From assembly GCA_036867785.1 (NCBI GenBank), contig CP145426.1, forward strand, positions 186,001 through 250,000: 64,000 nt of DNA, in the 5' to 3' direction. This stretch comes from Plasmodiophora brassicae. Its lineage: Eukaryota. The translations under genes and the position numbers were made by a program. Position 1 is the first letter of the stretch. Each line of letters opens with the position of its first letter. The notes under the pieces are model-generated. The model searched no databases and was not told the origin of the DNA. It was given only the letters and a program-made list of their open reading frames with translations. Positions 25,230 to 47,546 of this stretch are shown here, piece by piece.

Positions 25230-26756
25230 TTAGGCATTTATCGACAACCAGTTGTTCGTGGGATACAGCAGACTCTGCAACGATGGGAGAACCTGCGACT
25301 CCAGGATGCGATCATGGTCAAACGCCAGCGGCACTGTTAGACAGCCGTCGTCGGACGCGTGGTCGCTACTCGATGTGGTCGTGGAGATCGTGTCCTCACC
25401 GAATATGTCAAGCGTCTCTTGCCCTCCATCATCGATGCAGTCGGAACGTATGGGGAACCAAGCTAGCGCTTTCGCGTCATCCGGTAAGGTAGGCTGCACC
25501 TCGGTCATATCAACGACACTTGTGAACACAAACGTTGCCGTGGGACCACGAGGATCGCGCCGGGTATTGACGCTGTATCCGGCCGGTTGCAGGTCCACAT
25601 CGGTCAACGACATTTCATCGCCCAGCTTGCGTTGGGCGGCATGCTTCACTTGTTCGCCGTCACTCGCATGAACGAAAACGCCAGGCAACGCCCTGTATTA
25701 CAGTCAATGTCAATGCCGCGACTCTCAGGTCAAACGCTTCAACGCTACCAGTATTTTTCAAACGGGCTAAAACGGCGCTTGACAAGCAGGATATGAGGAA
25801 TGCCGCCCTTTAACCCAAGGACGCAGATGTCCACGATCAGTAAAGACATGCCAGACAGGTCGTGCGACGAGCGACCGACGTCTGGAACTGACCCTGGGGC
25901 ATTGCCCTCGAATTCGATCACATCCTTGAAAGATTCGGGTTTAACATGGGCCTGAAACGGATGAAGCGCGTCTTTCCCAAACAAGTTCCAGAAAACAGGA
26001 CGCCATCCAGTGGGTGGAGGGATTGTGAGGAAGCCCTCTCGGATCTCATTCTGCAGAATGTCGAAATGGTCGAAAGCCATAGGGATACCGCCGATGCCAG
26101 CTGCGAGCACAGGTATACCGGGTTGTGCGTTGATCGACATAGGAAGCTCACGTTCACCAAGGACGGGAACCCGTCTGCCCGCCGAGTACGCCACCAGGGA
26201 ATTGACAGGGAACCATGCCTCCCTGACGGAGCGACTAGCGAGGTGCGAAACGCGGTCCATGTCGACATGGCTCATGAAGAGGAACGTTGCCGTGTACCCC
26301 CTCGGATCCCGTTCCGCACTGGCGCGATACCCGATCGGTTGCAGGTTGAGACCTGCCTCGTTGCGGCTTAACGATGTCTGATTCTCGAGGGATCGATACG
26401 CTGCATCGATGAGCGGCTCGTCCGCACTGACGTTGACAGAGCCACCTGAGAACGCCCTGTAACAAGGCTAGTTGAAGGTATAGATTCCTAAAGAAGCATG
26501 CACCATACCAATGGTTCTGGAAAGGTCCAGCAGCGCGCTCAATCAGGAGGACGTGTGGGATACCGGCCCGCAACCCAACGATACATACGTCTACCATGAG
26601 GTGGGCCATTGCGAACCCGTACCGTAACATTCCTTCAGCCTGTACGCGGCGAGGCGTCGACGTCGCTGGGGCACCCTTGACTAATTCGACCTCGTCGCAG
26701 GCAGACGCCACGGCCGCGACCATGAAGATCAGCCAGATCGAATGCGCCCGAGGCAT
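25230..26756 (-). CDS. Secreted double-Nudix protein B (3 exons; both Nudix boxes degenerate)
   Basis: Signal IWLIFMVAAVASA-CD; same exon structure as copy A; boxes read AAYRSLENQT and AAQRKLGDEM. Confidence 0.85.
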
Positions 26757-30213: not shown

Positions 30214-33200
30214 TTTTGCGGCTCTGGGGTTCTCAGCCAGCATCACGCTACAAATAGTGCAATTTCTGCGCCTCAACTTTGCGCGCAGCAGCTCAGGAGT
30301 CGACAACTACCTCGGTACTCCACTGCACGAGACGTCAGCGGACATCAAACAGCTGCAGGTTGCGTAGCTGACTGGACGATTAAAATTATCAAGAGCGGGG
30401 TTCCATCATGAGGCTGTTTTCCGTCTCGCGTGCTAAGAGTTCGAGAGGAACGCCCGTGTCTGGTCGACGATCAGGGGGTACGCGCGCAGCGGCGCCGGAG
30501 CGGCATACCAGGCTGGTTGAGGTCCTGCAGCGGGCACAGGCCGGGTGATGCCTCACGTACTTGCGCTGGAACGAGGAACTGGTGCTGCGGGTTCGAGCGG
30601 CGGGCCCAGCGACGTCCAGGCAACACAACCAATTAGGCAAACGGATCCCCGATCTACAATTCGATCTTAGGCAGCGCCAGAAAGCATATATGACAACAAA
30701 CTCAGTGCGCAAATGCCGTGGCGATGACGACGTCGAGCGGAGGGCGGTGCAGCGAGGACAAGCGTGAACGACAAGGGTGCCGCGGCGAGGTAGCGCGGCG
30801 CTGGGTCCGTGACCCATGGGGCGCTGACACCATAGTGGAAGCCCCCCGTCGCGCCCGCCTGGCGTGGAAAACCAGGCGGCTCGCCGCACGCTGGGTCTAT
30901 GACCCGGCCGCACCCACCGGATTGGGCCGTGCCCTCTCCGACACCCTGACGGTCTGTGACCTGAAGGGCACCCTGACGGTCTGTGACCAGAAGGGCCCAG
31001 CCAAGGGAAGTTGCCCGAGGCTCAACCTGGGTTTCCGTGAAACTCAGGTCATGGGAGGCGCCTGTGGCGCCTACTCAGCCAAACTGGCGAACAACACACC
31101 AAAAACCGAAATACCGAAAACCGACATAACCGAAATACCAAACACCACACTCAGTATCACGCCCGCTGACCTCCGAGGTGCCTTGAGATCAGCACGTGTA
31201 CGATGCCCATATCCTAAAAGAGCTAGCTCGCCCACCGTATACGCCAATCTCCTAACGCATGACAGACCCCCGCCCTCGGACACGGCTGCCAAGTCCGTGA
31301 CGCACTTCTCTGGACCCCCCTCGGCGCGTCGAGACAGGCCCAACCCCGCAGTGATGGACCGAGTCCCGCACACCACCGACAACATCCAACTCACTCTAAC
31401 CACTAGCAGAACTGAAACCACAGGCTCCCCAGAAGCTCGGAGAGCCTCGCGCGAAAGACTGTCCGGCATAAGAAATACCCATAACAGAGATAGAACTCAT
31501 AGGGGCACACTCGACCTAACCTATAACAGAACCTCAACGACGTCCGTGACACACTGCTCTTGCTCATCCGACACCAGTGATCACAATGACATGCACAGCA
31601 CCCGAAGAACGCCGAATCTAGAAAACGAAAAGACAGGAACAAACCCACCCTACAACAAGAGATTGGAAGAATCGCGTGACGCAATATACAGAATCCCCCC
31701 ACCAGGCAATGGAACCAGGAACAAACATAACGCTAGACAGACCTCTATACTGGAGTACATCCAAAATAACGCAGAGCTGAACGACCTCAACCTACAGGAT
31801 TCAAATCCACAAGACGCTGACCAGAACCGGGTAAACATCGAACAGTGGAACGCCCGAACACTGACTAAACTCAAAGCTGAACGACTGGCAGAATTCGCGA
31901 AACTGAACAAAATCCACGTACTATGTATATCTGAACTAGGCTCCAGAAGGAAAATTGCTCACTTCCCCAACTACGACTACTCGGACCTGAATACCCAGTC
32001 GGGAATATTCTGGACAAAGAACATAAACGCAAAACGAATTAAAGCGGAGCAACTACAGCAATTTGAAAACAAAAGGATCACAACACAAATGGTCCTAATC
32101 AATGGCGAAACGCTACTCATTCACCCCTACATCCCCCCTGACGTTAAGCAGCGAACACGCAAAGCATACTGGAACGAAATAGAACGGTTTGTCACAAGTG
32201 AAAACAGACCTACAATCATCACAGGCGACCTCAACACACGGGACCGCCGACTAGATGCCTCGGTTAGAGCACGAAGACCCTACCTAGACCCAATCCTTAT
32301 TGAGTTCGAAGTCCTGAACGATATCACGCAGCCCACTAGATACGACCCCGCAAACGAGGAAAAAGGGAGCGTGCTTGACATTGCCATGTGCACTAGTGAC
32401 GCGCGCGAAAACATCCTTGCATGGAGGCTAGGTCCCGACTTGGATAGCGACCACAAAATCACGATTATAGAAACTGCACTAACAATCACCGAACCCGAAT
32501 CACTTTTCGATGGAAATGACCACAAGTCGACAGTCGACATCAACCTTACGACCGAGAACATCACCTTATGGCTTGAATACGAAAACATCGCCGAAGCGAG
32601 CCTGAGCAAACTAAGCAGCATAATCAGAAATAGCATTGCTTATAAAGAAACACCCAGAGAAAACCACAGATTCTGGACTACAGCCCTCCGAGACGCCTGT
32701 CGCAGGAAAGAACAGGCGAAAGAAGCACTCCAAAAAGCGCGACGAGACCAAAAACCTGAGGCCTACATGGAGGCCCTGAAAACAACGCTCCGTAATGAGA
32801 GCATTGAAGTATTGAGAGAATACAAAACAGCCAAGGTACAACGATACACTGAACTGGCAGAGACAGCGGTTGCTGACTCCACAGGCGCCACGACATGGAA
32901 GCTAATAAGAGAGATCAACCCTGAACTAAACAGCAAACGAACGCCACGAACAATCAAATCCAAAAGAGCCGATGAGGAGGCTGAAGAAATAGCAACAAAA
33001 TTTGCCAGCATCTACGACGATAACGACCTTGAAACGACAGAGAAAGAAAGGATGGAACACGACGCATTAATTAAAGCTCTCCAAACAGAGAAAGAAAGCA
33101 ATAGGCCAACACCTATCACTCGAAGAGAACTTGAAAAAGCCCTGAAGCGAGCCAAAATTCGTTCCGCCGGAGGAGTGGACGGCATTACAAACGTGCTCCT

Positions 33201-33687
33201 CAAAAGGGCATGCGAAGAAGAAACAACAGCGGAATATATCCTGGCAGCCATCAACAACGACATCGTCAAAGATGGAAAAATCCCAGACGACTTAAAAATC
33301 GCCAAAGTCCGGCCCCTACCGAAGGCAAAGCCAGGCGAATTCCGACCGATAGCCCTCCTGTCTAACTTAGCCAAACTAGTCGAATCGATAATTGAAACCC
33401 GATTACGCCACCAAGCCGAAAAACACCTACCACCAAACCAGACAGGGGGTAGGGAGGCCCACAACACGTCCCAGGCGATGATACGCCTACTTCAAATCGG
33501 GACACTGGTGCGACCTCGAGTCCGCAGAGTGCCTTAGATCAGCAATCATAGGGCGCCTCCCACATATACCGCGCAACACTGCCGTACGGCGTCCGTGGCG
33601 CACCAATCATACATTCTGCTATCTGGCCTTGTCTGGTCTTGTCCGTGTCCTGCGTGCTAATTGGTTTTGGGCCCATCCCAAGCCTTA

Positions 33688-33735
33688 CCCCTGTCCCTGT
33701 CCCCGTCCCTGTCCCCGTCCCTGTCCCTGTCCCTG
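33688..33735. repeat. (CCCTGT/CCCCGT)n hexamer repeat in the retrotransposon leader
   Basis: cccctgtccctgtccccgtccctgtccccgtccctgtccctgtccctg. Confidence 0.9.
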
Positions 33736-33853
33736 CCCCAGTTCCCGTGTCCCGTGTCCCAGCCCGTGTCGCGATCCAGTTCGCGTTGTGACCGCCGCGC
33801 CCCACGCTCGGTTTGTACCCGTCCCTGTCCCCCTGCTCCCGCCGCCCGCCATA

Positions 33854-34798
33854 ATGGCGGAGGACTGGAACCAGCTCGTCACAAACCTGAACTCTCAGAT
33901 CCAGCACTTGCAACAGCAACAACAGCAACAGCAGCAGCTTCTACAGCAACAGCACGATCAACTGCTACAACAGCAACAACTACTGCAGCAGCAACCAATC
34001 CCACAGCAGCACGGTGGCGCCCGCGAACCAAAAGTCAAGCTACCGCCGGCCTATAACGGCAGCCTGTCGGAGCTTCGGGGTTTCCTTAACCAGGTCAAAC
34101 TGGTTATTACCCAGCAGCCCAACACATACGCGACCGACGCTCAGAAGGTTGCATTGGTGGGCCAGCTGTTGGGTGGCGACGCCCTAAAGTGGTTTAACCC
34201 ACTGTTCGAGAGGAATGACGACCTGATGAAGGACTTCAGCGCCTTCGTCTCCGCAATCAAGAGCAGATTCGGGGACCCGAACCTCGCAGAGACCGCGGCC
34301 CGCAAGCTCCAGCACCTGCGTCAGGGTCGAGGCACCGTCGCCCGCTTCGCCACAGAATTCCAGAACTTGGCGGCGGACGCGGGGTTCAACGACTCAGCCT
34401 GCCGACACATGTTCCGCGCAGCCCTGTCTCGGGACGTACAGTTCCTCCTGCTGTCCTTGCCTGTCGCGAAAACACTCGACGAGCTCGTCCAGCAGGCGAT
34501 TCGCTGCGACAACCGTCTCTCCGAGCACAGATCGAACACCATGGTCCCAGCACCAGCTGTTCCTGCCGTCGTCTCCGCATCAGCTGCCCCTCCCGTTGCC
34601 GCAACACCCCCGGCCGCCGCGATCGGGCCGGTTCCCATGATCATCGACGCTGTGACCGGTGGCCCCCGCGCCTCGCTGACTGCCGAAGAGAAAGACCGCC
34701 GACGCCGTGAGGGCCTGTGCCTATACTGTGGAATGCCTGGCCATATCGCGTCGACCTGTCCTGTGCGTCCACAGGGAAACGTCCCTCGACGTGGCTGA
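33854..34798 (+). CDS. gag: Gag (Ty3/gypsy chromovirus/PEG10-like) with poly-Q and CCHC knuckle
   Basis: EPKVKLPPAYNG...RGFLNQ...DAQKVA...L.GDALKW, LRQG..TV..FATEF, PMIID, EEKDRRRREGLCLYCG.PGHIA.TCP. Confidence 0.9.
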   Translation: MAEDWNQLVTNLNSQIQHLQQQQQQQQQLLQQQHDQLLQQQQLLQQQPIPQQHGGAREPKVKLPPAYNGSLSELRGFLNQVKLVITQQPNTYATDAQKVALVGQLLGGDALKWFNPLFERNDDLMKDFSAFVSAIKSRFGDPNLAETAARKLQHLRQGRGTVARFATEFQNLAADAGFNDSACRHMFRAALSRDVQFLLLSLPVAKTLDELVQQAIRCDNRLSEHRSNTMVPAPAVPAVVSASAAPPVAATPPAAAIGPVPMIIDAVTGGPRASLTAEEKDRRRREGLCLYCGMPGHIASTCPVRPQGNVPRRG

Positions 34799-34874
34799 TG
34801 ACCCGGTCGGTCGCCACGTCTCTCGCGAATACACAACGCGTTCCCCTCCAAAACTCCGACCGATTCCCACATGA

Positions 34875-37800
34875 AGTAATGATCTCTGCGCGTCCACCAT
34901 TCCTCCAGAGCGCCCCGACCTTGTCCTAAGCATTGATGTGTCCCTGCTGCTCGACAACGGCAGGACTGTGCAGACGAAGGCACTCATCGACTCTGGAGCA
35001 ACGAACGACTTCATTCACCGCGATCTCGTCCACTTGCACAATGTACCCCTCGTTGAGAAACCTGCACCAGTTGACTTGGAGGTAATTGACGGGCGACGGC
35101 TGCCGAAAGTGTCAATGGAAACCGTCCCAGTTAGCCTCCGCATCGGCAACCACTCCTACTCGATCGTGCTGAACGTGATTGACTCCCCGCGATTCCCAGT
35201 CATACTCGGCATGACCTGGCTCACCAAACACAACCCGAGCATCAACTGGGCACACAGGACAATCGAGTTCCTCCGCACGCCCGACAACGAGTCAAGCGAA
35301 TCCTCGACTCCAACCTCCGAAGGCACCATCACAACACTAACCCTGCACGATGTCGACACAACACCCGAACGACCCGAATCCACTTCAGTCCCAGGAGCCT
35401 CGCCAACCGAACAGACACCGCCACCAGCAAACGCCAAGCGACGCCGCAAGTGGAAGCCCGAGATCCACGCCGATAACGACAAGGTACCTTACGCCGTTCC
35501 GCTTCCCGGGGATTGGAACCAAGCCCAGAGTCTCAAGCGGTGGCACCACCGCCTCGGCCACCGTAACCTGCGTGACGTCATCCTGATGGCAAATCATGAC
35601 CTTACCGAGTCCATGGAGATCCTGGCACAGAAGGTTGACAGGTTCTGCGAAGGGTGCGCTATCGCGAAAGCCAAGGAACGTCCTTTCCCCTCGGAGTCCA
35701 AAGAAAAACAGTGGAACGTGCTCGAGAGAATCGACGTCGACGAATGCGGACCGCTTCCCGTCGCCTCACTCAAAGGGGAGCGATACTTTATCACGTTCAC
35801 GGAATTTGCAACCAGGATGAAATTTACCTTCCTGTTGCACCACAAGAACCAGGCGCTGACCAAGTTCAAGGAGCTCAAGACTCGAATTGAGAATCGCCTG
35901 GAGAAATCCATTAAGATCCTCTTCGGCGACAACGATGGGGTATTCATCAACAACGAGTTCAAGGCGTTCTTGCAGGACAACGGGATCGAGTGGAGATCAA
36001 CGGTGGAGTATTCCTCCAAGCAGAACGGTGTCTCCGAACGGGGACACCTGACGCTTATGGACTCCGGTCGCGCAATGCTCGTACACGCAAGGCTCCCCAA
36101 GCAGTTCTGGGGACCCGCAATTCTGACTGCCAGCCACGTCCATAATCTCTGCCCCCACCCACGCGATCCCTCGACCACGCCCCATGAAATGCTGTCGCGC
36201 TCGAAACCTGATATCCGCTATCTTAGAACGTTCGGGTGCGACGCATATGGCTACGTCCCGTCCAGCCAGAGAACGAAGCTGGACCCACGCGCCGTGAAAG
36301 GCATCTTCATCGGGTATGCAGACCACCAGAAAGGGTACGTCCTCTATCACCCTTCGTCCGGCCTGATCAAGGTGTACCGCAGCGTGACGTTCAGCGAAGA
36401 CAGCTTCGGCGGCCGCAGTGCGGACGACGCCCTCGCCGATCCCGAGGAACCTGAGTCTGGATACGACAGCGACTACGTTCCCTCCGGTGACGAACCCGCT
36501 GTCGAGGGGGCGCAGTCCGCCGCAGGCCCCAGTGAGGATCCGCGACCTCCCACCGAACGAGCCCGGCGTCTCTCCCGCAAGCCAGACCGTTTAGGAGATC
36601 CCGTCCACCACGCCTGGATCGCGTCCCTGCAACCTACCAACGACGATCCTATTCACCACATGTGGATAGGTTCCACACATCAATGCGACGACGACGATGA
36701 CGCCGCGCTCAATGCAGATGACCCCGACACTCCAAACACATATGAAGACGCCATGGCAAGTCCCGAGGCAGAGTTCTGGACTAAGGCGATGGCCGATGAA
36801 TTGAAGAGCCTGAAACAGCACAAGACATGGGAAGCTGTGGAGCGACTACCCGTCGGGGCACGCCCCATCGGATGCCGCTGGGTCTACAAGCGCAAGATCA
36901 CCAAGTCAAGTCAGATCCCGCCGGACACCACCTGGGTTCTCCGCCATGACCCCGACGGTGTCACCTCCTACCGGTACAAGGCTCGACTATGCATACTCGG
37001 CTACAGACAGCGCCAGGGGATCGACTACACGAACACCTATGCGCCAGTCGTCCGGAGCGACATCCTCCGTCTAGTACTAGCCATGTCGGTCCAAGACAAG
37101 GAGATCATCGCCGAGCAGATGGATGTGATGACCGCATTCCTCAACGCCCATCTCACCGAAGAGATCTACATGGACTCCCCGAAAGGGATGAAGGCCAGAA
37201 CCCGTTTCGTCAAGCTCCTACGATCGATCTATGGCCTGAAACAGGCCCCAAGAGAATGGTTCAAGGTCATCGACGCCTTCCTCGTTAACGAATGCGGGTT
37301 CCAACGAGCCAAGTCCGCATCGTGCTTGTACTTCAAACGTGGTCCAACTGGACGGCTCGTCATTGTTGGGGTCTACGTCGATGATATTCCCATCGTCGGA
37401 CATCCCGAACTCGTACAGGAAACCAAGTCAGCCCTCTCGAAGAGATTCAAGATGTCGGACATGGGAGAGCTTCAATCAGTCATTGGCTTCGACGTCGATA
37501 GACAAGGTGGATCGGTGTTCCTGTCGCAGGAACGCTACACGAAAACTATCCTCGACACCTACGGCATGGCCGAATCGCGCCCCGTCTCGACACCGGCAGA
37601 TGCGAACTTGAAGTTATCCACATCACTGTGCCCGCAGAACCAGGCCGATCGCGAACTTGCCGCCTTAGAAGGCCAGCGCATCAACTATCGAGCAGCGGTA
37701 GGTCACCTAATGTGGCTGCTGCACACCCGGCCAGACATCGCCTATGCGGTGAACGAGGTCTCCCGATACGTGCAAGACCCAGGGCCAGCGCACTTCGTCG

Positions 37801-38444
37801 CGCTGAAGCGAGTCTTCAGGTACCTCAACGGCACTCGCAACTACGGCCTCCTGTTCGAAGGAGGTGGGGAAACGGCCACACCGCTCCTGGTCGGCTACTC
37901 CGATTCTGATTGGGGTGGAGACCTCGACACACGACGATCGACTTCGGGGTGCGTGTTCCTTCTGAATGGCTGCCCGGTTTCATTTCGCTCTAAGAAGCAG
38001 ACCACGGTCGCGTTATCGTCGTGCGAGGCGGAGACGGTGGCGTCAACACTCGCGGCAACAGAAGGCGTCTGGTTGCGCAATGTGCTGGACGAACTAGGTT
38101 TTCCACAAGCTCAGCCTACACCTCTACACGTAGACAATCAGGGGGCGATCGCGTTCGCCAACAGCGAAATCAACCACAGCAAGATGAAACATCTCGCGCT
38201 CAAGGACCACTTCGTCAGAGAACTGGTGGCATCCAACCAGATCAAGGTGCACTACGTCCGCTCGTGCGAGAACCTCGCCGACATCTTCACGAAACCGCTC
38301 GGAAAGCACAAGTTCGTAGAATTCCGTGCGGCCCTCAAGTGCGTACCGCATCCCCACATGAACTTGGACTCTCAGGTCGAGGGGGGGAATCGGGACACTG
38401 GTGCGACCTCGAGTCCGCAGAGTGCCTTAGATCAGCAATCATAG
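34875..38444 (+). CDS. pol: Pol: retropepsin - GAG-pre-integrase - integrase - copia RT - RNase H
   Basis: ALIDSGA...ILGMTWL.KHNPSINW; WHHRLGH, CEGC, QNGVSER, TKLDPRA; YKARL...QG.DY..TYAPV, QMDV.TAFLN, YGLKQAPR.W, YVDD; GYSDSDW...RRSTSG, ADIFTK. The frame is open from 34875. Confidence 0.93.
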   Translation, partial: SNDLCASTIPPERPDLVLSIDVSLLLDNGRTVQTKALIDSGATNDFIHRDLVHLHNVPLVEKPAPVDLEVIDGRRLPKVSMETVPVSLRIGNHSYSIVLNVIDSPRFPVILGMTWLTKHNPSINWAHRTIEFLRTPDNESSESSTPTSEGTITTLTLHDVDTTPERPESTSVPGASPTEQTPPPANAKRRRKWKPEIHADNDKVPYAVPLPGDWNQAQSLKRWHHRLGHRNLRDVILMANHDLTESMEILAQKVDRFCEGCAIAKAKERPFPSESKEKQWNVLERIDVDECGPLPVASLKGERYFITFTEFATRMKFTFLLHHKNQALTKFKELKTRIENRLEKSIKILFGDNDGVFINNEFKAFLQDNGIEWRSTVEYSSKQNGVSERGHLTLMDSGRAMLVHARLPKQFWGPAILTASHVHNLCPHPRDPSTTPHEMLSRSKPDIRYLRTFGCDAYGYVPSSQRTKLDPRAVKGIFIGYADHQKGYVLYHPSSGLIKVYRSVTFSEDSFGGRSADDALADPEEPESGYDSDYVPSGDEPAVEGAQSAAGPSEDPRPPTERARRLSRKPDRLGDPVHHAWIASLQPTNDDPIHHMWIGSTHQCDDDDDAALNADDPDTPNTYEDAMASPEAEFWTKAMADELKSLKQHKTWEAVERLPVGARPIGCRWVYKRKITKSSQIPPDTTWVLRHDPDGVTSYRYKARLCILGYRQRQGIDYTNTYAPVVRSDILRLVLAMSVQDKEIIAEQMDVMTAFLNAHLTEEIYMDSPKGMKARTRFVKLLRSIYGLKQAPREWFKVIDAFLVNECGFQRAKSASCLYFKRGPTGRLVIVGVYVDDIPIVGHPELVQETKSALSKRFKMSDMGELQSVIGFDVDRQGGSVFLSQERYTKTILDTYGMAESRPVSTPADANLKLSTSLCPQNQADRELAALEGQRINYRAAVGHLMWLLHTRPDIAYAVNEVSRYVQDPGPAHFVALKRVFRYLNGTRNYGLLFEGGGETATPLLVGYSDSDWGGDLDTRRSTSGCVFLLNGCPVSFRSKKQTTVALSSCEAETVASTLAATEGVWLRNVLDELGFPQAQPTPLHVDNQGAIAFANSEINHSKMKHLALKDHFVRELVASNQIKVHYVRSCENLADIFTKPLGKHKFVEFRAALKCVPHPHMNLDSQVEGGNRDTGATSSPQSALDQQS

Positions 38445-38694
38445 GGCGCCTCCCACATATACCGCGCAACACTGCCGTACGGCGTCCGTGGCGCACCAAT
38501 CATACATTCTGCTATCTGGCCTTGTCTGGTCTTGTCCGTGTCCTGCGTGCTAATTCTTCACCACGCGGGGTGCGCGGCAGCTAAAGACAAACAGTTCGCA
38601 ACCATATTCTATGACTTCACAAAGGCATTCGACAGAGTGAAACATGTTAAGCTAATCGAAAAGATGCGAAGGATGCAAATTGACCCCTACCTAA

Positions 38695-39042
38695 GAGCAT
38701 CTCCACCGGTGATCCATATCCATATCTTTAACCGCGCAATTTATGGATTCCAGATTTGGTGAAAGGTAGGGGTTTCCCCAGCGGTGGCCGGGACACCAGT
38801 CAGTCTTTAAACGGGAGGGGTTGTCCGACGCCGGCGCGCAGTCCGTGGTGCGCTGTTCGCGGCGCGCTGTCCGCCATTTTGCTGTCCTCAAATCCGTTCC
38901 AGATCTGTTCAAATCTGCGACGGATTTAATGACGATCCATATCCGTTTATAGATATGGACAACGAGTGGGGTACAGATTCTCTATCATTATCATTAAATT
39001 TGCGGATATATATATGGATATGGATCACCGGTGGAGATGCTC
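38695..39042. mobile_element. PIF/Harbinger-type (Tourist-like) MITE, 348 bp
   Basis: 31-bp TIRs GAGCATCTCCACCGGTGATCCATATCCATAT; TAA TSD; excision restores LINE RT sequence DPYLILIIDEWL. Confidence 0.93.
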
Positions 39043-39946
39043 TAATACTGATAATCGACGAATGGCTCTCAAACAGGAAATTTGAAGTATCACACCGCGG
39101 AACCACGTCCAGACAACGAAAGCAAACGAGCGGGATCCCACAAGGGTGAAGTCTGAGTGTACTCCTATGGGCAATTTATGTATATGATGCTCCCCTTGAA
39201 GAAGACACTAGCAACATCTACGTTGATGACATCGCCACTTGGGCAACCGGACAAACAAAGAAACAGGTGAAACGCATCTTGCGTAGGAAGAACGCAGCCT
39301 TAATGAAATGGTGTGAAGACAACCACATCAAAATCAACTGGGACAAAACGGTGATACTTTTCAATGAGTATAACCCAGATGACTGCCTAAAGACGAACAA
39401 AACCAGAATTACGACGGCCCCAGAAGTTAAGTACCTGGGAATCACGTTGCGCGCAAATGAGGAAGACAGAAGCGGGATGATGATGATCGACCTCACAGGC
39501 ATAGCAGCCAATATCAGGCAAAGGTGCAGAGCAGTCAGGTCACTCCTAAAATACAATTTTCCCATCAAGACATACCATCAAATATGCAAAGGATTCATTG
39601 GGGGAAACTAAACTACTACCTGCCGATACTAGGAGCCGAAACTGGGAAAGAAATGAAAAGCGTTCTTCGCCCGTTAGAAATTGCATACAATGAGTACATG
39701 AGAGCATATGCTGGTGCGTTCTGCTCCACACCAACACCTCTGCTGCACGCAATGACAGGATGATTCAAGCAGTTCGAAGCGCTTAGGAAAGTGAAAGTCC
39801 CCAGTGTATCTAACGTGGGGGAAGCCGACGTCCCCATGACGTCGCACACACAGTGGCACGGTCGCCACTGTGCACCAGTTGCGTCACGTCGTCGTGACTC
39901 ATGGGTCGGCCACTGTCGCTAGCCTTCCCATTATGAATCAGCCGCC

Positions 39947-42900
39947 CTAAGGCGCCAGCGACAGGTCCACCCGACCCATCCCGGCCGCCCTCTTCATGAC
40001 CTCCACAGGTTCACGAGTGGTCGGCTTGGTGAGCGCGTCCGCCGGATTGTTCTTTGACGCCACGCGCTCGAACCGGAGCAGTCCCTCCTGGACGCACTCT
40101 CGCACATAGTGCCATTTCACCCGAATGTGCTTGTTCCGGTCCGTGACCCCGAGCGTCTTCACCATCTGCTCGGCAGCCGTGTTGTCCTCCAGCACAATCG
40201 ACGGGTCCGTCAGAGTGAACCCGATGTCGGTGAGGAGCATCCGGACCCACACTACTTCACGCGCCAGCTCGCTGGCCGCCACGTACTCCGCGTGCGCTGA
40301 GGAGGTCGCCACCAGGCTTTGCTGCTTCGATCGCCAGCTCACAGCTGCGTCCATCAGCGTGACGATGAATCCCGTGACCGACTTGGATGTGTCCGGGTCC
40401 ATCGCAAAGTCCGAGTCGACCGCCGCCCGGGGCTCCGACTCCTTCACGTTGTCTTTGTTCAGTGCCATCGGGTCGAATTCAGTCGCCGGTGTCTTGCTCT
40501 TCGCGTAGATGATGCCGACATCCGTGTTGTTCTGGACATATCGCAGCACGTGGAGCATCGCCTCGAAATGCTCCCGACCCGGGTTGTTCAGGTGACGCGA
40601 CAGCTGCGACACCGCGTGCGTGATTGTCGGCATCGTGCCGATCGACAGATGCGCCAGGCAACCAACGCCCTCGCGGTACCGCTCATGCTGGTGCGGAACA
40701 CCGTCGGTTCGCCGGGGCATAATCTGCCCGACAGGCAGAGCCGTGGCCGGCGCGCGCAAGCGGCGCCCGGCGGCTGCCTCGTCGATGTCGGTCTGGAACC
40801 GCGCGACCACCTCCTTGGCGTACTGCTGTTGGTCGATCGTGATGCGCGTTGCCTCCTGCTTGATGCGCATCCCCAGGATCCATCTCGCGATGCCGAGGTC
40901 CTTCATCTTGAACTTCTTGCCCAACGCTGCCTTGACGTACTCGATGACGTCGGGATCCGTGCCAAACATCATAAAGTCGTCCACGAACACCCCGAGGATC
41001 GTGATCTGTCTGCGGCCGTCCTTCGTCGTGAACATAACGAACAGGCACGGGTCGCCGGTCACCCTTGTGAAGCCGATTTCGAACAGAACTGATACGAGCT
41101 TATCGTACCAGAGCTTCGGCGCCTCGACCAGGCCGTACAGCGCCTTCAGGAGCTTCATCACCTTGCCGCGTCCTCCGACCACGAAGTTCTTCGGCTGTTC
41201 ACAGTAGATCGGGTACGGCAGGTCTCCATTCAGGAACGCCGTCTTAACGTCCAGCTGGTGGATGACCACGCCCAGCATGGCCGCCAGCGCCACCATGATG
41301 CGCAACGTCGCATACCGGAGCGTCGGCGAGTACGTCTCCTTCTGGCCCTTGAACTTGTCGCAGCATCCCTTGACGCAGAAGCGGGCCTTGTGGCGCGTGA
41401 TCTCCCCGTCCTCGTCGCGCTTCGTCGTGTGCACGAACATTGTTGGCAGCACTTGAGCGTCGGTCGGGCGGTCCACGATCTCATACGTGCCCGCTTCCTT
41501 CAGCGACTGCATCTCCTCGACCTGCGCCGCCAGGTACTTGTCCCGGTCAGGCCCGTTCTCGGCCTCGTACTCAGTGAGGAACGCGTTGCCAGCGTCCTCC
41601 TCCTCCAGGTAGCTGTCCTCGTTCTCGAGCGCCTCGTCCTGGTTGACCTGGTCCTCGTTGTCCGGGTCGTCGTTGGCCTCGTTGTCGTGGTCGACAGCAT
41701 CTGCTGCTGCCGCCTGGTCGACGTTGTCGGCAGCCCCTGCTGCCGCCCTGGCGCTGGCCGCCCTCTGGCGCCGCGCTTCGCCGTCGTAGTCCACGTCGGC
41801 AAACCGAGCGGGCGCTCCTCTGATGCGCGTCGACCGCCTCGGTTCAGGGACGCCTTGAGCAGCAGGTCCTCGATCCCCGCCGCCCTGAGCTGCTTGCTCA
41901 TCGCGTCCGTCATGCCGGTCTTCACCGGCACCTGCGAGTTCCCTGGCACGGTCGTCCCCGCCGCCGCCTCGCTGAATGGCGCGGCCATCCTGGCCGCCGC
42001 CCTGTTGTTGACCGACGCGACCTTCTCGATCGCCGTCGTCTTGTCGTGCGACGCGATCGTCCCGACCGCCGTCGTCTTCTTGCCCATGACGATCGTCTTG
42101 ACCGCCATCGCCGCCTCCTTGCAGCTGGGCTTGCGCCGTCTCTTGGCGCTTGCGGGTCTCCTCTCCGCGGGAGCCGCTGTCATCCTTGAACGGGAATTCG
42201 TTGGGGAAGAAGACCACGTCCGAAGACTCGATCATCTTGCGGCTGTGCCACAGCAGCAGCCGGTACGCCTTCTTGTCGATGCACACCCCCATGTGGACCG
42301 CGCGCTCGGCCCTGGCGTCCAGCTTGCACTTCTTTTGCCGCCGGATCCTGACCCACGCCTCGCAACCGAATGGCATCGCCCTCGACAGGTCTGCTTGTTC
42401 CCCCGTCAGTTCCTCGATTGGCGTCGTCCGGTGGCCGTGTCGTTGGAGCGGCACGCGGTTGGCTACCCACGTCTGATGCCGCCCGTTCTCGGTCCAGTAC
42501 TTGCGCGGGACGCCTGACTGGACACGAGCTGCGCGCATCATCTTGACAATCTTGCCACCGAACGTCTCCGCGAGACCGTTCTGGTGCGGGCGGTCCGTGT
42601 CGCTGAACTCCTGTGCGATTCCCCGCTCGCGCAGCAGCTTCGCCAGGCGCGTCGAGGTGAACTCGCCGCCCTGGTCGGCGCGGAACGTGTCGACGCGTGT
42701 GCCGCCCATGACCTCGAGCCGGGTCAGCACGTCCATGACGACTTGCTCCTGGTCACCCTTATTTGCCAGGTTGACCGTGGCACCGACACCAGTCGCGTGG
42801 TCAACGTAGCACGCCATGTACGTCTTTCCGTCATGCGACCTGGTGTCGAACGTCTGCAGGTCCGCCCCGACGATCTGCAGCTTCGAGAGCACCGTCCGTG

Positions 42901-43228
42901 TCCGTCTCCGCGGGATCGCCGTTCGGTTGAGGTTGGCCTCGATGCACACCTTGCACCTGGGCACCTCGTCGCTCGCCAGGTCGGCCTCGTCGATGTTGAG
43001 ACCGGTGATTGCCCCGTTCTTGACTGCCTTTCTGATCGTGATCGTGGACAGGTGGCCGCACCTCGCGTGCGCCTCCGCCAATGATATCGTTCTGTCGCGC
43101 TTTACGTCCGCGGGCTTGCGCGTTTCCTTCTTCTCGGCCGGCTCCTCCTTGCTCGGGCTCTTGTTTTCTGGCTGGTTTGGATGATCGTGATCGGGGGCGG
43201 CCAGCGCCACCCCCGCTACTCGAAATCC
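39947..43228 (-). CDS. pol: Copia ORF2: integrase - RT - RNase H (no own ATG; -1 frame relative to ORF1)
   Basis: HARCGH, CKVC, RADQGGEF, QNGLAE, KLDARA; KARFCVKG, HQLDVKTAFLNG, LYGL, FVDD; DSDF, SWRSKQQ, KHI, ADALTK. Confidence 0.92.
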   Translation of the reverse strand, partial: GFRVAGVALAAPDHDHPNQPENKSPSKEEPAEKKETRKPADVKRDRTISLAEAHARCGHLSTITIRKAVKNGAITGLNIDEADLASDEVPRCKVCIEANLNRTAIPRRRTRTVLSKLQIVGADLQTFDTRSHDGKTYMACYVDHATGVGATVNLANKGDQEQVVMDVLTRLEVMGGTRVDTFRADQGGEFTSTRLAKLLRERGIAQEFSDTDRPHQNGLAETFGGKIVKMMRAARVQSGVPRKYWTENGRHQTWVANRVPLQRHGHRTTPIEELTGEQADLSRAMPFGCEAWVRIRRQKKCKLDARAERAVHMGVCIDKKAYRLLLWHSRKMIESSDVVFFPNEFPFKDDSGSRGEETRKRQETAQAQLQGGGDGGQDDRHGQEDDGGRDDRVARQDDGDREGRVGQQQGGGQDGRAIQRGGGGDDRARELAGAGEDRHDGRDEQAAQGGGDRGPAAQGVPEPRRSTRIRGAPARFADVDYDGEARRQRAASARAAAGAADNVDQAAAADAVDHDNEANDDPDNEDQVNQDEALENEDSYLEEEDAGNAFLTEYEAENGPDRDKYLAAQVEEMQSLKEAGTYEIVDRPTDAQVLPTMFVHTTKRDEDGEITRHKARFCVKGCCDKFKGQKETYSPTLRYATLRIMVALAAMLGVVIHQLDVKTAFLNGDLPYPIYCEQPKNFVVGGRGKVMKLLKALYGLVEAPKLWYDKLVSVLFEIGFTRVTGDPCLFVMFTTKDGRRQITILGVFVDDFMMFGTDPDVIEYVKAALGKKFKMKDLGIARWILGMRIKQEATRITIDQQQYAKEVVARFQTDIDEAAAGRRLRAPATALPVGQIMPRRTDGVPHQHERYREGVGCLAHLSIGTMPTITHAVSQLSRHLNNPGREHFEAMLHVLRYVQNNTDVGIIYAKSKTPATEFDPMALNKDNVKESEPRAAVDSDFAMDPDTSKSVTGFIVTLMDAAVSWRSKQQSLVATSSAHAEYVAASELAREVVWVRMLLTDIGFTLTDPSIVLEDNTAAEQMVKTLGVTDRNKHIRVKWHYVRECVQEGLLRFERVASKNNPADALTKPTTREPVEVMKRAAGMGRVDLSLAP

Positions 43229-44685
43229 TGGACCTTGTGCAGATCCAGGTAGTACAGGCCCTTGCGGACCGTACTGGTCACGATCGTCCTTCCGGCCCCG
43301 TCCAGGAGCCGGGCTGAGCGCGTCTGCTCATGGTGCTCCGCGCCCGTCTTGCCGTCCTTGCCGAGCTGCAGGAGTGCCGAACGCACCGCGAAGATGTTCG
43401 CGGATGCATCTGGCGCGTACGCGACGTTTGTCAGCGTGATCGACTTGCCGTTAGCCAGCTTGAGGCGGACGTTGCCCCTGGCATGGACCTTGATTCGCTG
43501 CGGGCCGATGCCGCCGATCGTCGGCCGGTCCTTGTCGGCGATGAAGTCCAGCTCCTCGAAGTGCGCCTTGTGGGTGGACACGTGGCCGCACGTCGCCGCG
43601 TTGTCGACGATGAAGTCGCGGATGCCCTTCCGCGGCGCGTCCTCGACGCCCGCCAGGCTCGTCAGGAGCGCGATCGACGCCGAACCGCCTTCCTCTTTGC
43701 CCCCCTTCCGCTTGCCGTTCCTGGCCTTGCCGCGCTCGGCGTTGCCGGTCTTCTTGCGGCTACGGCAGTCGGCCGCCCTGTGTCCAGCCTTTCCACAGTT
43801 GAAGCACTTGCCGGAGAACCCCGTCGTCGTCATGGCCGCCGAGGAGCCGCTGTCGTCGTCGCCGCGCTCTATCGCTCCCCGCTTGTACTGAGCGAGCACT
43901 TCTGCGCGGACCTTGCTTTGCGTCAGCTCTCCGATGGGACCGCGCAGCATCGCGTTGACTAAGTCCTTGTACTCGGTGTATGGCAGCGAGATAAGGACCT
44001 TCGTCGCCATGTCCGACTCAGTCTTCGTCCGATTCGGATCCGCCCGGGCCAGGTTGATGCCCAGGTCGCGCATCGCCGTCAGGTGCGCCTTGGTCTCCGT
44101 GAGGTCGGCGCCCGCCTTAAGCTTTGTTGTTGACAGAAGAATGTCGAACATCGCCAGGTCCGTGCCCGTTTGGCCGGAATACTCCGTCTGGATGGCGCTC
44201 CACGCCAGGTCCGGACGGTCGTCGGGTATGTCGAGTATCAAGGGAAGTTCGTCTTCATGCACGTTCTTCTTGATAGCGTACATTGCGTGGAGCCTCTCTT
44301 GCTCCGACGCCGGCTCTTCGTTGTGCCCGCGCGTCGCGGGCTCCACGGCCTTTTGCAGGCCCGACTTCTTGAGCATCGTCGTCATCGACGACGCCCAGAC
44401 CAGGTAATTGTCCTTGCCCTTCAGCTGGACGGAGATCTTGATGCCGGACTCCTTCAGGCCCGTCAGCCTTTCCTTCTGCGCAGCTTCCAGCCGCGCCAGA
44501 CGATCCTTGAGCGCCGCGTTCTCGCGCTGGCCGGTCCCGCTCCCGGCCGCCGCTGCTTGCAGACGTTCAACCTCCGCCTCCAGCCGATCCTGCTGCCGCT
44601 GGGCCTCGGACAGCGCAGCGCTTATCTGGGCGATCACGGCCTCTGCTTGGGCCAGGTCGGCTGGGATGCTTGGGATCGTCGCCAT
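43216..44685 (-). CDS. gag: Copia ORF1: Gag + CCHC knuckle + aspartic protease
   Basis: LKG.DNY.VW, LISLP..EY, CFNCGKAGHRAADC, FIVDNAAT..HV, G.V.L, LTNVAYAP, GLYYL. Confidence 0.88.
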   Translation of the reverse strand: MATIPSIPADLAQAEAVIAQISAALSEAQRQQDRLEAEVERLQAAAAGSGTGQRENAALKDRLARLEAAQKERLTGLKESGIKISVQLKGKDNYLVWASSMTTMLKKSGLQKAVEPATRGHNEEPASEQERLHAMYAIKKNVHEDELPLILDIPDDRPDLAWSAIQTEYSGQTGTDLAMFDILLSTTKLKAGADLTETKAHLTAMRDLGINLARADPNRTKTESDMATKVLISLPYTEYKDLVNAMLRGPIGELTQSKVRAEVLAQYKRGAIERGDDDSGSSAAMTTTGFSGKCFNCGKAGHRAADCRSRKKTGNAERGKARNGKRKGGKEEGGSASIALLTSLAGVEDAPRKGIRDFIVDNAATCGHVSTHKAHFEELDFIADKDRPTIGGIGPQRIKVHARGNVRLKLANGKSITLTNVAYAPDASANIFAVRSALLQLGKDGKTGAEHHEQTRSARLLDGAGRTIVTSTVRKGLYYLDLHKVQDFE

Positions 44686-47546
44686 CAGAGAGTGGGACTC
44701 TTAATCTGATTCAAGCAGTTCGAAGCGCTTAGGAAAGTGAAAGTCCCCAGTGTATCTAACGTGGGGGAAGCCGACGTCCCCATGACGTCGCACACACAGT
44801 GGCACGGTCGCCACTGTGCACCAGTTGCGTCACGTCGTCGTGACTCATGGGTCGGCCACTGTCGCTAGCCTTCCCATTATGAATCACAGGATTTCCGTTA
44901 CTACGAGATGCCATATGCACAAGTACAACTACGGCGGTACTATCGGCAATTGCTAACGACACCCTATTAGGACAAGAGTACGACACATGGGATGGGGAGG
45001 GCGATGGCTGGACCCCCCTCGGATTAGTGGAAAAGACCCTCTCTGAATACATGCCCAGAGCGTACACGGACGTCCACCCAAAAGTAAAAATCGACGAGCA
45101 GATACTAGAAAACCTCTACCGAGTCCAATTCCACACAAGTTCTAGAGCAGAGGCTATAGACAAACACCTTGCAGGGGAACTACTACCGCAAGAAGCTCCA
45201 GTAGAAATATGGACTGACGGAAGCCTTACACCGGGAGAAAATGCAGGGGCAGCCGCCCTGTATATTGATAACAGGACCGACCCGCCTACAGAGGAAGTAA
45301 GGGAAACTGCACTTAGCTCCATCATAGTGCAATCCAGTTACGAGACGGAACTCATTGCACTAGGATGTGGCCTGGACACAGCCGCCGAACAAGACGTCAA
45401 AGACACCAAAGTACACATATTTTCGGACTCTTTATCGTGGATCAAACAACTACAGGCCCTCCCAACAAGACCCAAAAGGGTACATGACGAGGTGGCAGCC
45501 TGCGCAGATAAACTGGCCCAACTGGTAGCGAACAACAATGAGGTACACGTACACTTCATCCCTAGCCACGTCCCATTACCGAAAGACGAGCCAGCTCCGA
45601 GCAGCAAGATGGAAAGCGAAACCACGGACGACACCGAAGCACAAAGCGACTGCGGAAGCACACAAGACCTGAGCCCAGTGCGGAAACAAAACCATAACCG
45701 AGAACCACCTGTAGAAAACCGCAAGGACCTATCGGAAGCAGACGGTGAAAAAATGAATGACTGTACCAACTCGCAACCCCTGTATCTTACACTGAAAGAA
45801 ATCCAAAACCAGACACCGCCCTCTCCTACCAACTACGACCATACCGACACGGACAGTAGCAGTGAGAATCTAATACCCGCCTACGTAGACAAAACCCACC
45901 CCATCCAAATAGAGCCCAGCGAGCCCAACGACTCTGATTGCAGCAGCGACGATGACTCAGACTCGGACTCCGCCACCCCCCGCAGAAGGAAATTCCTTGA
46001 AATAGGGCACAGCGAAGAAATCGACAAACTAGCCAAACGGGCGGCCAAGAAAGGTATATGCGGAGTTGAACACTCCCCATTCATATCCTCCTACAAACTC
46101 CATTTGAGACGCATGGCAGCCGACCGATTAGAAGATCATCTAAAGAACAACATCAAAGAAAGCAAATGGGAAGACTATCCCAACCGACAACGATATCGAG
46201 ACGACGCAAAAAACATAGCATACGACAGCAGAAAAATCCATACTCACCCCCTGCTGAATCGCGCCCGCTCGGGACACTGCGGCGCACGGCAGCACCTCTA
46301 TAACATCAGCCAAGACTTGGCCGGAGAGTCATCTCAATGCCGGCACTGCGGGAACGCAGCCGAAACCATCGAGCATCAACTCTTGCACTGCACCGCATTA
46401 CATCACAAACTACAACAAGAACGCGACGCATACGCGAGACTGTGGAAAAACTCCTTCACAGAAGCCCTCTGGAAATATGAAGACGAGATGACTAACATTC
46501 TCAAGTCTGCAAAGAACAAAAAGTGCCTATACATCTAACAAACACGCCAAGACCACAACACCACCCAGAACGAAGAACAAAGCCGTGCTGATATGCGACC
46601 AACGAGATCTCGCGGTGCAGGTTACCCTGCCCCGCCAAGGCCACAGGGCCTAAATGTTATGGGTGCCCGACAGCCCAGTAAGTGTCGTTTAGGAGTTTTC
46701 TTAGGGGATCACTTGAGCAGGTTGGAAGGCGAAGGGGCGCCTGTAAAACAGGTGACCACCTCCCACGTGGGGGTGGATGTCGTCAGTAGTGCAGCCAGAT
46801 CTACCACAGTGAGGAAGATCAAAGTCTACGAACCTGTGGGGTGCTCTTTGAGCCCTCAGACTCGCCCCGGAGTCGCCAACCTGCGAGATCCCAGCACAAA
46901 GGTGACAGGCCGGCACTGCCAGGCCGGGAGAAGCTGCCGTTCTGGAAGCGATCCTACGGTCCTCGGAACCGAAACCGAGGCGCCTGCCTGAAAAGCGCGA
47001 AACACAAATAAACTAAACTAAACTAAACTAAATATATGACAACCCGTCTCCCTCCAAATGGCAGCCTATCACAACCAGTCTACCTTTTATTGGGTTCGTC
47101 CAGCTGGCCTGGCTCGGTTTCTTGGTAAACGTACGTAGTTGGAAAGCGTTATAAGTGGGCATATATATAATGCTTCACAGTTGGGGCAACTGGCATGGTT
47201 CGTAAGCTTGAAATTGGCAGAATGTGTGTACCGACATCATCTGTCCATTTACCTCCTCGTGTCGCTACTACTGGAGCAATGGTACGAGAAGCAGAAGGTC
47301 GGGAAGTTCCACAGGCGATCCACAACCGTCAGGAAGACGTCCGCGCGCAGGATGGAGCGACCACTGACCATGTAGTTCAGATCTCTAGACTCACTGAGCA
47401 GGGTGCACTGGTTGCAGGGGGAGGTACGCACGTACCCGCAACGCGCGAGGACAGCATTCGAACATGAGTTCGCAACGGGAGTTGGTATTCTACTGTTTTG
47501 TAGTATATGGCAGATGTATTGCCGAACGGTCGGGATCTCGATTCCA

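Follow-up and report, generated by a model that had tools for sequence, protein, structure and literature searches.

A copia-type LTR retrotransposon with a chromovirus-type gag and protease in Plasmodiophora brassicae, and its relatives in environmental assemblies

Introduction

When retrotransposons with long terminal repeats (LTRs) are classified, copia and gypsy are taken as distinct lineages, the genes of each moving as a set. A locus in the genome of Plasmodiophora brassicae raises the question of whether a single element can cross this boundary and, if so, when and in which direction the crossing took place. The locus lies in the stretch of 64,000 nucleotides analysed in this work (contig CP145426.1, positions 186,001 to 250,000 of the forward strand, assembly GCA_036867785.1; hereinafter, the window, to which all the coordinates refer), where a complete LTR retrotransposon extends from 33495 to 38555. 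A preliminary description, made from the letters alone, had read it as a recently inserted inter-superfamily recombinant, i.e., as a gypsy-type gag and protease (PR) joined to a copia-type integrase (IN), reverse transcriptase (RT) and RNase H (RH), that has transposed as a unit. The data reported below very probably reflect a copia-backbone lineage, old and diversified, equipped with the gag, the frameshift site and the protease of a chromovirus, of which the window harbors a recently inserted copy whose pol is out of frame.

Results and Discussion

Domain organization of the element

The gag open reading frame (ORF) encodes the motifs EPKVKLPPAYNG, PMIID and EEKDRRRREGLCLYCG and a CX2CX4HX4C knuckle (34718-34759), and its product matches the Pfam models Retrotrans_gag (PF03732; 4e-14), DUF4939 (7.5e-11) and Ty3_capsid (2e-9). 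In the pol frame, the models RVP_2 (3.5e-9), gag_pre-integrs, rve, SH3_retrovirus and RVT_2 (3e-59) follow one another in the order PR-IN-RT-RH typical of copia, with PR at amino acids (aa) 33-135, IN at 218-511 and RT at 684-908 of the 1189-aa frame. The motifs ALIDSGA (34989) and ILGMTWL..NPSINW (35202-35249) are followed by WHHRLGH (35541), YVDD (37374) and ADIFTK (38277); the linker separating the two halves is 82 residues long, 39% of which are S, T or P, and is variable among the members of the family described below. No Pfam model matched the region 37902-38294 (DSDW ... ADIFTK), which we take to be the RNase H on the basis of its motifs. All the sequence features on which the preliminary description was built are indeed present, and the Pfam searches confirm the division that it had drawn between a gypsy-type gag and protease and a copia-type IN and RT, with a single pol ORF running through the S/T/P-rich linker from one to the other.

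Equally informative is what the element lacks. Neither a copia-type gag (Retrotran_gag_2 / UBN2) nor Pol_BBD gave a Pfam match in the element at E <= 0.01, and no Chromo match was obtained in pol, a domain that is present in the verified chromovirus sequences. The chromovirus-type layout RVT_1-RNase H-integrase is also absent, as the RT is of the RVT_2 type and the integrase lies upstream of it.

In order to place the two halves, the element was compared with a true chromovirus polyprotein (P0003; 1455 aa, containing RVT_1, RT_RNaseH, Integrase_H2C2 and a chromodomain). The two are collinear, with 45% identity in gag (E 4e-62) and 40% in the protease (E 3e-18), up to NPSINW (pol residue 125), where the similarity ends; downstream of this point, nothing better than E 1.2 was found. 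A profile-free, exhaustive search of the protein library with the protease (E <= 1e-3) retrieved 3861 proteins; among the best 150 of these, 38 are at least 400 aa long, and according to Pfam 17 of the 38 contain RVT_1, none RVT_2 and one gag_pre-integrs. Nine long protease relatives, checked singly with Pfam, are all of the gypsy/chromovirus type, with RVT_1 in eight of them; P0056 contains gypsy-type integrase domains and a chromodomain, with no RT match at the 1e-5 cut-off. When the copia part of pol was compared by BLAST with 153 proteins (the 150 best protease matches plus P0001-P0003), it was found in P0029 and P0006 only.

A canonical copia element located in the same window (39761-44886) served as a control: it gives Retrotran_gag_2 (PF14223) and Pol_BBD, together with the same RVT_2/rve/SH3 pol, and no PF03732. 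Compared with canonical Ty1/copia elements (Pseudoviridae; this neighbour and P0158), the element under study thus shares the PR-IN-RT-RH order, RVT_2, the gag_pre-integrs/rve/SH3_retrovirus integrase, the ADIFTK-type end and a target site duplication of 5 bp, whereas it differs in its gag and protease (PF03732/Ty3_capsid and RVP_2 instead of Retrotran_gag_2 and Pol_BBD), in the link between gag and pol, which is a -1 frame with the heptamer G GGA AAC, and in its LTR ends (AA...TT versus TG...CA). With the chromoviruses (Ty3/gypsy, Metaviridae, Tf2-like; P0003 and P0001), on the contrary, it shares the collinear gag (capsid and CCHC) and protease, elements with RVT_1 and a chromodomain dominating its protease matches, but it is devoid of RVT_1, RT_RNaseH, Integrase_H2C2 and the chromodomain, and its integrase stands ahead of the RT.

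Insertion and limits of the element

The limits of the element were set by an empty site, since contigs from two DNA runs (X1 and X7) join 33489 directly to 38556. The insert therefore amounts to 5061 bp plus a 5-bp duplication (CTTCA), which is present on both flanks as in Ty1/copia elements; the two LTRs are identical over their 168 nt, as the preliminary description had noticed, and their termini are non-canonical, being AA...TT rather than TG...CA. On the basis of the target site duplication, the identical LTRs and the empty-site contigs, the chimeric element was inserted as one unit, in full agreement with what had been proposed. Neither an internal LTR nor a second repeat pair exists within the element. 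The features of the element are listed in Table 1.

Table 1. Features of the chimeric LTR retrotransposon and of its insertion site (window coordinates).
Feature	Position	Strand	Remarks
Left target site duplication, CTTCA	33490-33494	+	Empty-site joint 33489->38556, 5 shared letters, runs X1 and X7
5' LTR, 168 bp	33495-33662	+	100% identical to 38388-38555; limits set by the empty-site joint
Putative primer binding site, GGTTTTGGGCCCA	33663-33675	+	Directly 3' of the 5' LTR; resembles the motif of L001
gag ORF, 314 aa + stop	33854-34798	+	ATG 33854, stop 34796-34798; Ty3/gypsy-type capsid
Slippery heptamer G GGA AAC, proposed -1 frameshift site	34774-34780	+	In the gag register; same heptamer in L001
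Hairpin, 7 nt 3' of the heptamer	34788-34820	+	-22.7 kcal/mol, z = -2.0; 6/200 shuffles fold as well
pol open frame, PR-linker-IN-RT-RH	34875-38444	+	1189 codons (34875-38441) + stop
Two extra bases within GCGCG	34888-34889	+	Absent from near-identical copies; interrupt the -1 frame
Gypsy/chromovirus-type aspartic protease	34971-35279	+	RVP_2 3.5e-9; 40% identity to P0003; protease tree
S/T/P-rich linker holding the inter-superfamily junction	35280-35525	+	Chromovirus homology ends at aa 125; gag_pre-integrs from aa 218
Copia-type integrase (gag_pre-integrs, rve, SH3_retrovirus)	35526-36407	+	Pfam
Copia-type reverse transcriptase (RVT_2, YVDD 37374)	36924-37598	+	RVT_2 3e-59; inside the copia clade (100/100)
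Presumed RNase H region (DSDW ... ADIFTK)	37902-38294	+	Motifs
Polypurine tract, GAGGGGGGGAA	38377-38389	+	Abuts the 3' LTR; encodes VEGGN at the C-terminal end of Pol
3' LTR, 168 bp	38388-38555	+	100% identical to the 5' LTR
Right target site duplication, CTTCA	38556-38560	+	Sequence and empty-site joint

The host of the insertion is a LINE-like element (endonuclease and RVT_1), other copies of which occur without the insertion in the read contigs. In the window, this non-LTR retrotransposon is found in three pieces (30694-33489, 38561-39760 and 44887-46538), being interrupted both by the chimeric element and by the canonical copia. No other copy of the chimeric element is present in the 64-kb window, where the neighbouring canonical copia alone matched it, with 23-30% identity between the two pol products. 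In the read contigs of the runs X6 and X17, at least five differing sequences adjoin the LTR end, and they represent further insertions or solo LTRs. As regards the run X1, the summed contig depth, which is not a copy number, is about 7 times higher in the LTR bin than in the internal bins; together with the several flanks found after the LTR end, this suggests the existence of solo LTRs or the sharing of the LTR.

A family of elements with the same architecture

The search for relatives sharing this architecture, which the preliminary description had recommended, was successful: at least seven further elements from environmental assemblies exhibit it, with 44-62% identity. In P0029 and P0006, the protease matches continue into a copia integrase, as disclosed by BLAST. 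Four other proteins (P0154-P0157; 1086-1126 aa, from ENA/JGI assemblies) are 46-62% identical to residues 1-520 of pol and consist of an N-terminal protease region of the gypsy type followed by gag_pre-integrs, rve, SH3_retrovirus and RVT_2. The Pfam evidence for the protease is uneven among them: RVP_2 matches P0154 and P0155, gag-asp_proteas matches P0157, and P0156 has only a weak Asp_protease_2 match (E 7e-4); P0154, whose N-terminal end is missing together with the DSG motif, retains only the C-terminal part of the protease. The next match after these four proteins, P0158, is a canonical copia (Retrotran_gag_2 and Pol_BBD).

The most complete relative is L001, a metagenome contig of 4769 bp on which gag, protease and copia pol are found together, from gag through RNase H. 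Its gag (637-1560), which shares 37% identity with that of the window, matches PF03732 and Ty3_capsid, and PR-IN-RT-RH then follows in the -1 frame. L001 is the only one of the 80 metagenome loci listed with the chimeric layout, a proportion that is not a measure of rarity. Six other loci (L031, L037, L068, L032, L078 and L062) showed weak gypsy gag or protease matches, and were read as separate elements because these matches are either on the strand opposite to the copia match or at a distance of over 3 kb from it. Only canonical copia clusters were retrieved from the ESM Atlas (best score 0.89), and a scan of IMG/VR yielded 46 pattern matches and no relatives. The C-terminal VE(G/R)G(N/S), which corresponds in the window to the polypurine tract, is kept in all five full-length proteins of the family.

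Since relatives that are only 44-62% identical share the same architecture, the recombination is old and family-defining. Of the scenario implied by the preliminary description, only the recent insertion stands.

Phylogenetic analysis and direction of the exchange

Three phylogenetic trees were constructed. The IN-RT-RH tree (35 sequences, 999 columns) is a quick LG+G4 tree provided with Shimodaira-Hasegawa-like approximate likelihood ratio test (SH-aLRT) values only; in it, a single clade (SH-aLRT 99) holds six chimeras together with P0160, the sequence of which is the same as a part of L001. The sister of this clade is the canonical copia P0158 (100), and P0161 comes next (99). In the RT tree, rooted on six gypsy RTs, the chimeras fall inside the copia clade (100/100) and are grouped with P0158 (90/93). 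The protease tree was obtained under a mixture model from 33 sequences, the gypsy labels being checked with Pfam for nine of them; P0171, P0216, P0201, the neighbouring copia, P0002, P0273 and P0154 were omitted, the last one because its N-terminus is devoid of the DSG motif. This tree separates nine copia sequences from 17 gypsy and seven chimera ones with a 100/100 split, so that the protease, far from grouping within copia, lies on the gypsy side. The domain searches, the comparison with the chromovirus and the trees of the protease and of the copia part all speak in favour of the inter-superfamily recombinant that had been proposed.

As regards the direction of the replacement, the outgroup-rooted RT tree and the identity of gag (45%) and protease (40%) with a chromovirus, versus no detectable similarity elsewhere, indicate that a copia lineage has swapped its own gag and protease for chromovirus ones.

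Read support for the junction

At least half of the sampled words of the element occur in 20 of the 24 runs listed, which belong to 10 studies. Contigs running from gag over the protease and the linker up to 35519 were found in X7 (34405-35519, with no differences), X17 and X6; in the rows listed, all the contigs end there and new ones begin at 35490. Contigs built from short reads thus agree with the PR-IN junction of the window copy on either side of the 30-mer 35490-35519, and none of those listed bridges it. The junction was accepted because the frame is open across it, because the residues encoded by 35490-35519 (AVPLPGDWNQ) are kept in P0154 and P0155, and because L001 is a single contig; in P0155, the gypsy-type protease lies upstream of these residues in the same protein.

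Both X1 and X7 also contain a relative of the region 35480-36152 that is about 90% identical to it (X7 record 27, 64 differences over 673 nt) and that continues with unrelated sequence upstream of 35480. It could belong to a subfamily that has diverged, or be the copia parent of the chimera.

The gag and pol frames

An aspect missed by the preliminary description is that, in the window copy, gag and pol are in different frames and do not overlap, as the stop of gag (34796) lies ahead of the point where the pol frame becomes open (34875). A heptamer, G GGA AAC, is located in the same gag register in the window and in L001 (16 and 15 nt ahead of the gag stop, respectively), pol being in the -1 frame, and a hairpin is predicted just downstream of it. 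In the window, the -1 frame remains open for 51 codons from the heptamer, up to a stop at 34927-34929. This interruption is due to two extra bases (34888-34889), also missed before, whose removal lets the -1 frame continue into the protease frame. Contigs without the two bases are otherwise near-identical to the window copy (one other difference in 1128 nt), and this form accounts for a depth of 494.6 out of 2304.2 in X1, 10.2 out of 10.2 in X6, 67.4 out of 67.4 in X17 and 0 out of 478.4 in X7.

Judging from the arrangement of the frames, the layout of the family would be gag, a -1 shift and PR-IN-RT-RH, with the window copy out of register. Since the two bases break the -1 frame, this copy is probably unable to make its own Pol; most likely, it depends on the Pol supplied by intact sister copies, or it mutated after its insertion. 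Splicing was also considered as a link between gag and pol, and it was rejected: the GT...AG pairs were checked by eye, and no joint falling within the element was found among the read-contig joints.

Proposed model and alternative explanations

According to the explanation that we favour, an RNA driven by the LTR would be translated into a Ty3-like Gag, of which both the ORF and the family are documented. A fraction of the ribosomes might slip to the -1 frame at G GGA AAC, which the hairpin follows, and produce a Gag-PR-IN-RT-RH polyprotein, as suggested by the heptamer, its register and the layout of the frames in two distant members of the family. The chromovirus-type protease would then cut the polyprotein, and the copia-type RT and IN would copy and insert the element. 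The backbone would be that of copia, with the copia-order integrase-RT-RNase H, a 5-bp target site duplication and, probably, copia-style priming, the window copy being a recent insertion into a LINE-like element.

Some observations weigh against this explanation. The IN-RT-RH clade of the relatives relies on the quick tree mentioned above, with SH-aLRT as its only support. Five of the seven chimera proteases form a clade (100/97), the placement of those of the window and of P0155 being left without resolution, so that the protease by itself does not establish that the acquisition happened only once. Among the contigs listed for four runs, none passes beyond 35490-35519 by 31 nt or more in both directions. 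The hairpin of L001 (5 nt 3' of the heptamer) does not fold better than its shuffles (z -0.57, 59/200), and the putative primer binding site of the window has no match with a stand-in initiator tRNA (allowing at most one mismatch over at least 8 nt). Lastly, the form with the two extra bases accounts for the greater part of the X1 depth and for the whole of the X7 depth, which would not be expected for a merely dead copy.

These observations have to be set against three other readings of the locus. The one implied by the preliminary description is that a chromovirus and a copia, both residing in this very genome, recombined there once, and recently; the identity of the LTRs fits such an event, and the 90% relative with a different sequence upstream of 35480 (X7 record 27, with loose ends in X1 and X7) could be one of the parents. 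However, seven relatives found in other assemblies are only 44-62% identical and fall into one IN-RT-RH clade, instead of being near-identical DNA, and L001 has even the same frameshift heptamer; moreover, the members of the family have a hypervariable linker, so that the break at 35480 may simply mark a diverged subfamily. An event confined to this genome is hence very improbable. Even less credit can be given to an artefact, that is, a misassembly at the shared 30-mer or a gypsy fragment nested in a copia element. Such an origin would explain why all the contigs break at 35490-35519, and published surveys (PMC6317226, PMC3248453) take elements of mixed domains for mispredictions or for nested insertions. 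It is nevertheless at odds with a single frame that is open for 1189 codons over the join, with the lack of an internal LTR or second repeat pair, and with the fact that a copia-type protease is absent and not merely displaced; the conservation of AVPLPGDWNQ in P0154 and P0155, the latter with a gypsy-type protease upstream in the same protein, and the continuity of L001 from gag to RNase H on a single contig also argue against it.

It might finally be supposed that the chimeras represent a deep copia branch whose gag and protease, ancestral or convergent, are merely gypsy-like. The capsids of all LTR elements are reportedly distantly homologous, a view attributed to Krupovic and Koonin (2017) that counts in favour of ancestral retention, and in the unrooted IN-RT-RH tree a single branch divides the chimeras from all the other sequences, which makes gain formally inseparable from loss. 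Yet an ancient resemblance does not account for a gag and a protease that are 45% and 40% identical to those of a chromovirus in a polyprotein whose remainder has no significant similarity to it, and the gypsy-rooted RT tree puts the chimeras inside copia, beside P0158 with its Retrotran_gag_2 and Pol_BBD. Retention or convergence is thus a very unlikely origin, and an old replacement of gag, frameshift site and protease in a copia lineage is still the explanation that best agrees with the whole of the data.

Precedents and significance

In the full-text literature, as far as the accessible portions of the papers go, no account was found of a gypsy gag and protease occurring in a copia element, Repbase, Dfam and GyDB lying outside the search; whether the family is undescribed is therefore a question with about even prospects. 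Similarly balanced are the chances that it represents an undescribed, evolutionarily stable and still active recombinant lineage, combining the chromovirus gag, -1 signal and protease with the copia IN-RT-RNase H, spread across several eukaryotes.

Two kinds of elements are related precedents. The Gmr1-like gypsy elements, reportedly described by Goodwin and Poulter in 2002, are said to have a copia-like pol order in which the order alone is changed, the RT and IN being of the gypsy type. The chimera shares with them the integrase located upstream of the RT and the gypsy-type gag and protease, but it differs in its RT and IN, which are of the copia type (according to Pfam and, for the RT, to the tree). 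PyRE1G1 of Porphyra yezoensis is said, in the title of a work by Peddigari et al. of 2008, to be a copia-like element with a gypsy-like integrase. In PyRE1G1 as in the chimera, a domain of one superfamily is found in an element of the other; what has been exchanged is the integrase in PyRE1G1, going by that title, and the gag and protease in the chimera.

Two surveys (PMC6317226 and PMC5445492) removed chimeric-looking elements as mispredictions, and the "complex transposons" of PMC3248453 are nested insertions. Since domain-based pipelines discard mixed-domain elements, families like the chimera may be systematically undercounted. The chimera crosses the boundary between copia and gypsy and has then diversified, and it can be regarded as a natural test of whether a Ty3-type capsid can package a copia-type RT and IN with their primer, and of whether a protease of the gypsy type is able to process a polyprotein of the copia type. 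If the stable and still active lineage outlined above is real, it would show that, in nature, Metaviridae and Pseudoviridae have capsid-protease and replication modules that are interchangeable.

Primer binding site

The anticodon loop is conserved among initiator tRNAs. Upstream of its gag and behind a presumed LTR, L001 has a counterpart, GGTTATGAGCCCA, of the putative primer binding site of the window, the two motifs differing at two positions. A 14-mer of L001, GGTTATGAGCCCAA, is complementary at 13 of its 14 positions to the anticodon stem-loop (positions 28-41) of an initiator tRNA, the E. coli metZ being used as a stand-in for the host tRNA; scans of the window and of 60 loci gave no tRNA genes. 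Half-tRNA priming from the anticodon loop marks copia, Ty5 and their kin, according to PMC1181622. The L001 motif resembles that of the hemiviruses (copia, Ty5, Osser and 1731, which use half-tRNA primers) in its complementarity to the initiator tRNA's anticodon stem-loop, whereas the window motif, two positions off that of L001, departs from them in not matching the stand-in tRNA. Half-tRNA priming in the chimeric family may thus be considered a lead rather than a result.

Minor features of the element and neighbouring repeats

In the 5' untranslated leader of the element (33677-33749), a short repeat resembling CCCTGT/CCCCGT is present, where reads are flagged as cut. A run of CAG/CAA codons (33896-34013) encodes a poly-Q stretch near the N-terminus of gag.

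The canonical copia used as a control is located on the minus strand, 1.2 kb downstream of the chimeric element and in the same LINE-like host. Its LTRs are 180 bp long, identical and bounded by TG...CA, its target site duplication is CAGGA, and its gag-PR ORF (43216-44700) overlaps with the pol ORF (39947-43327), which is read in another frame. Elsewhere in the window, two direct repeats of 157 nt (23801-23957 and 26184-26340) with 74% identity lie at a distance of 2.4 kb from each other, and a small, old element may have had them as its LTRs.

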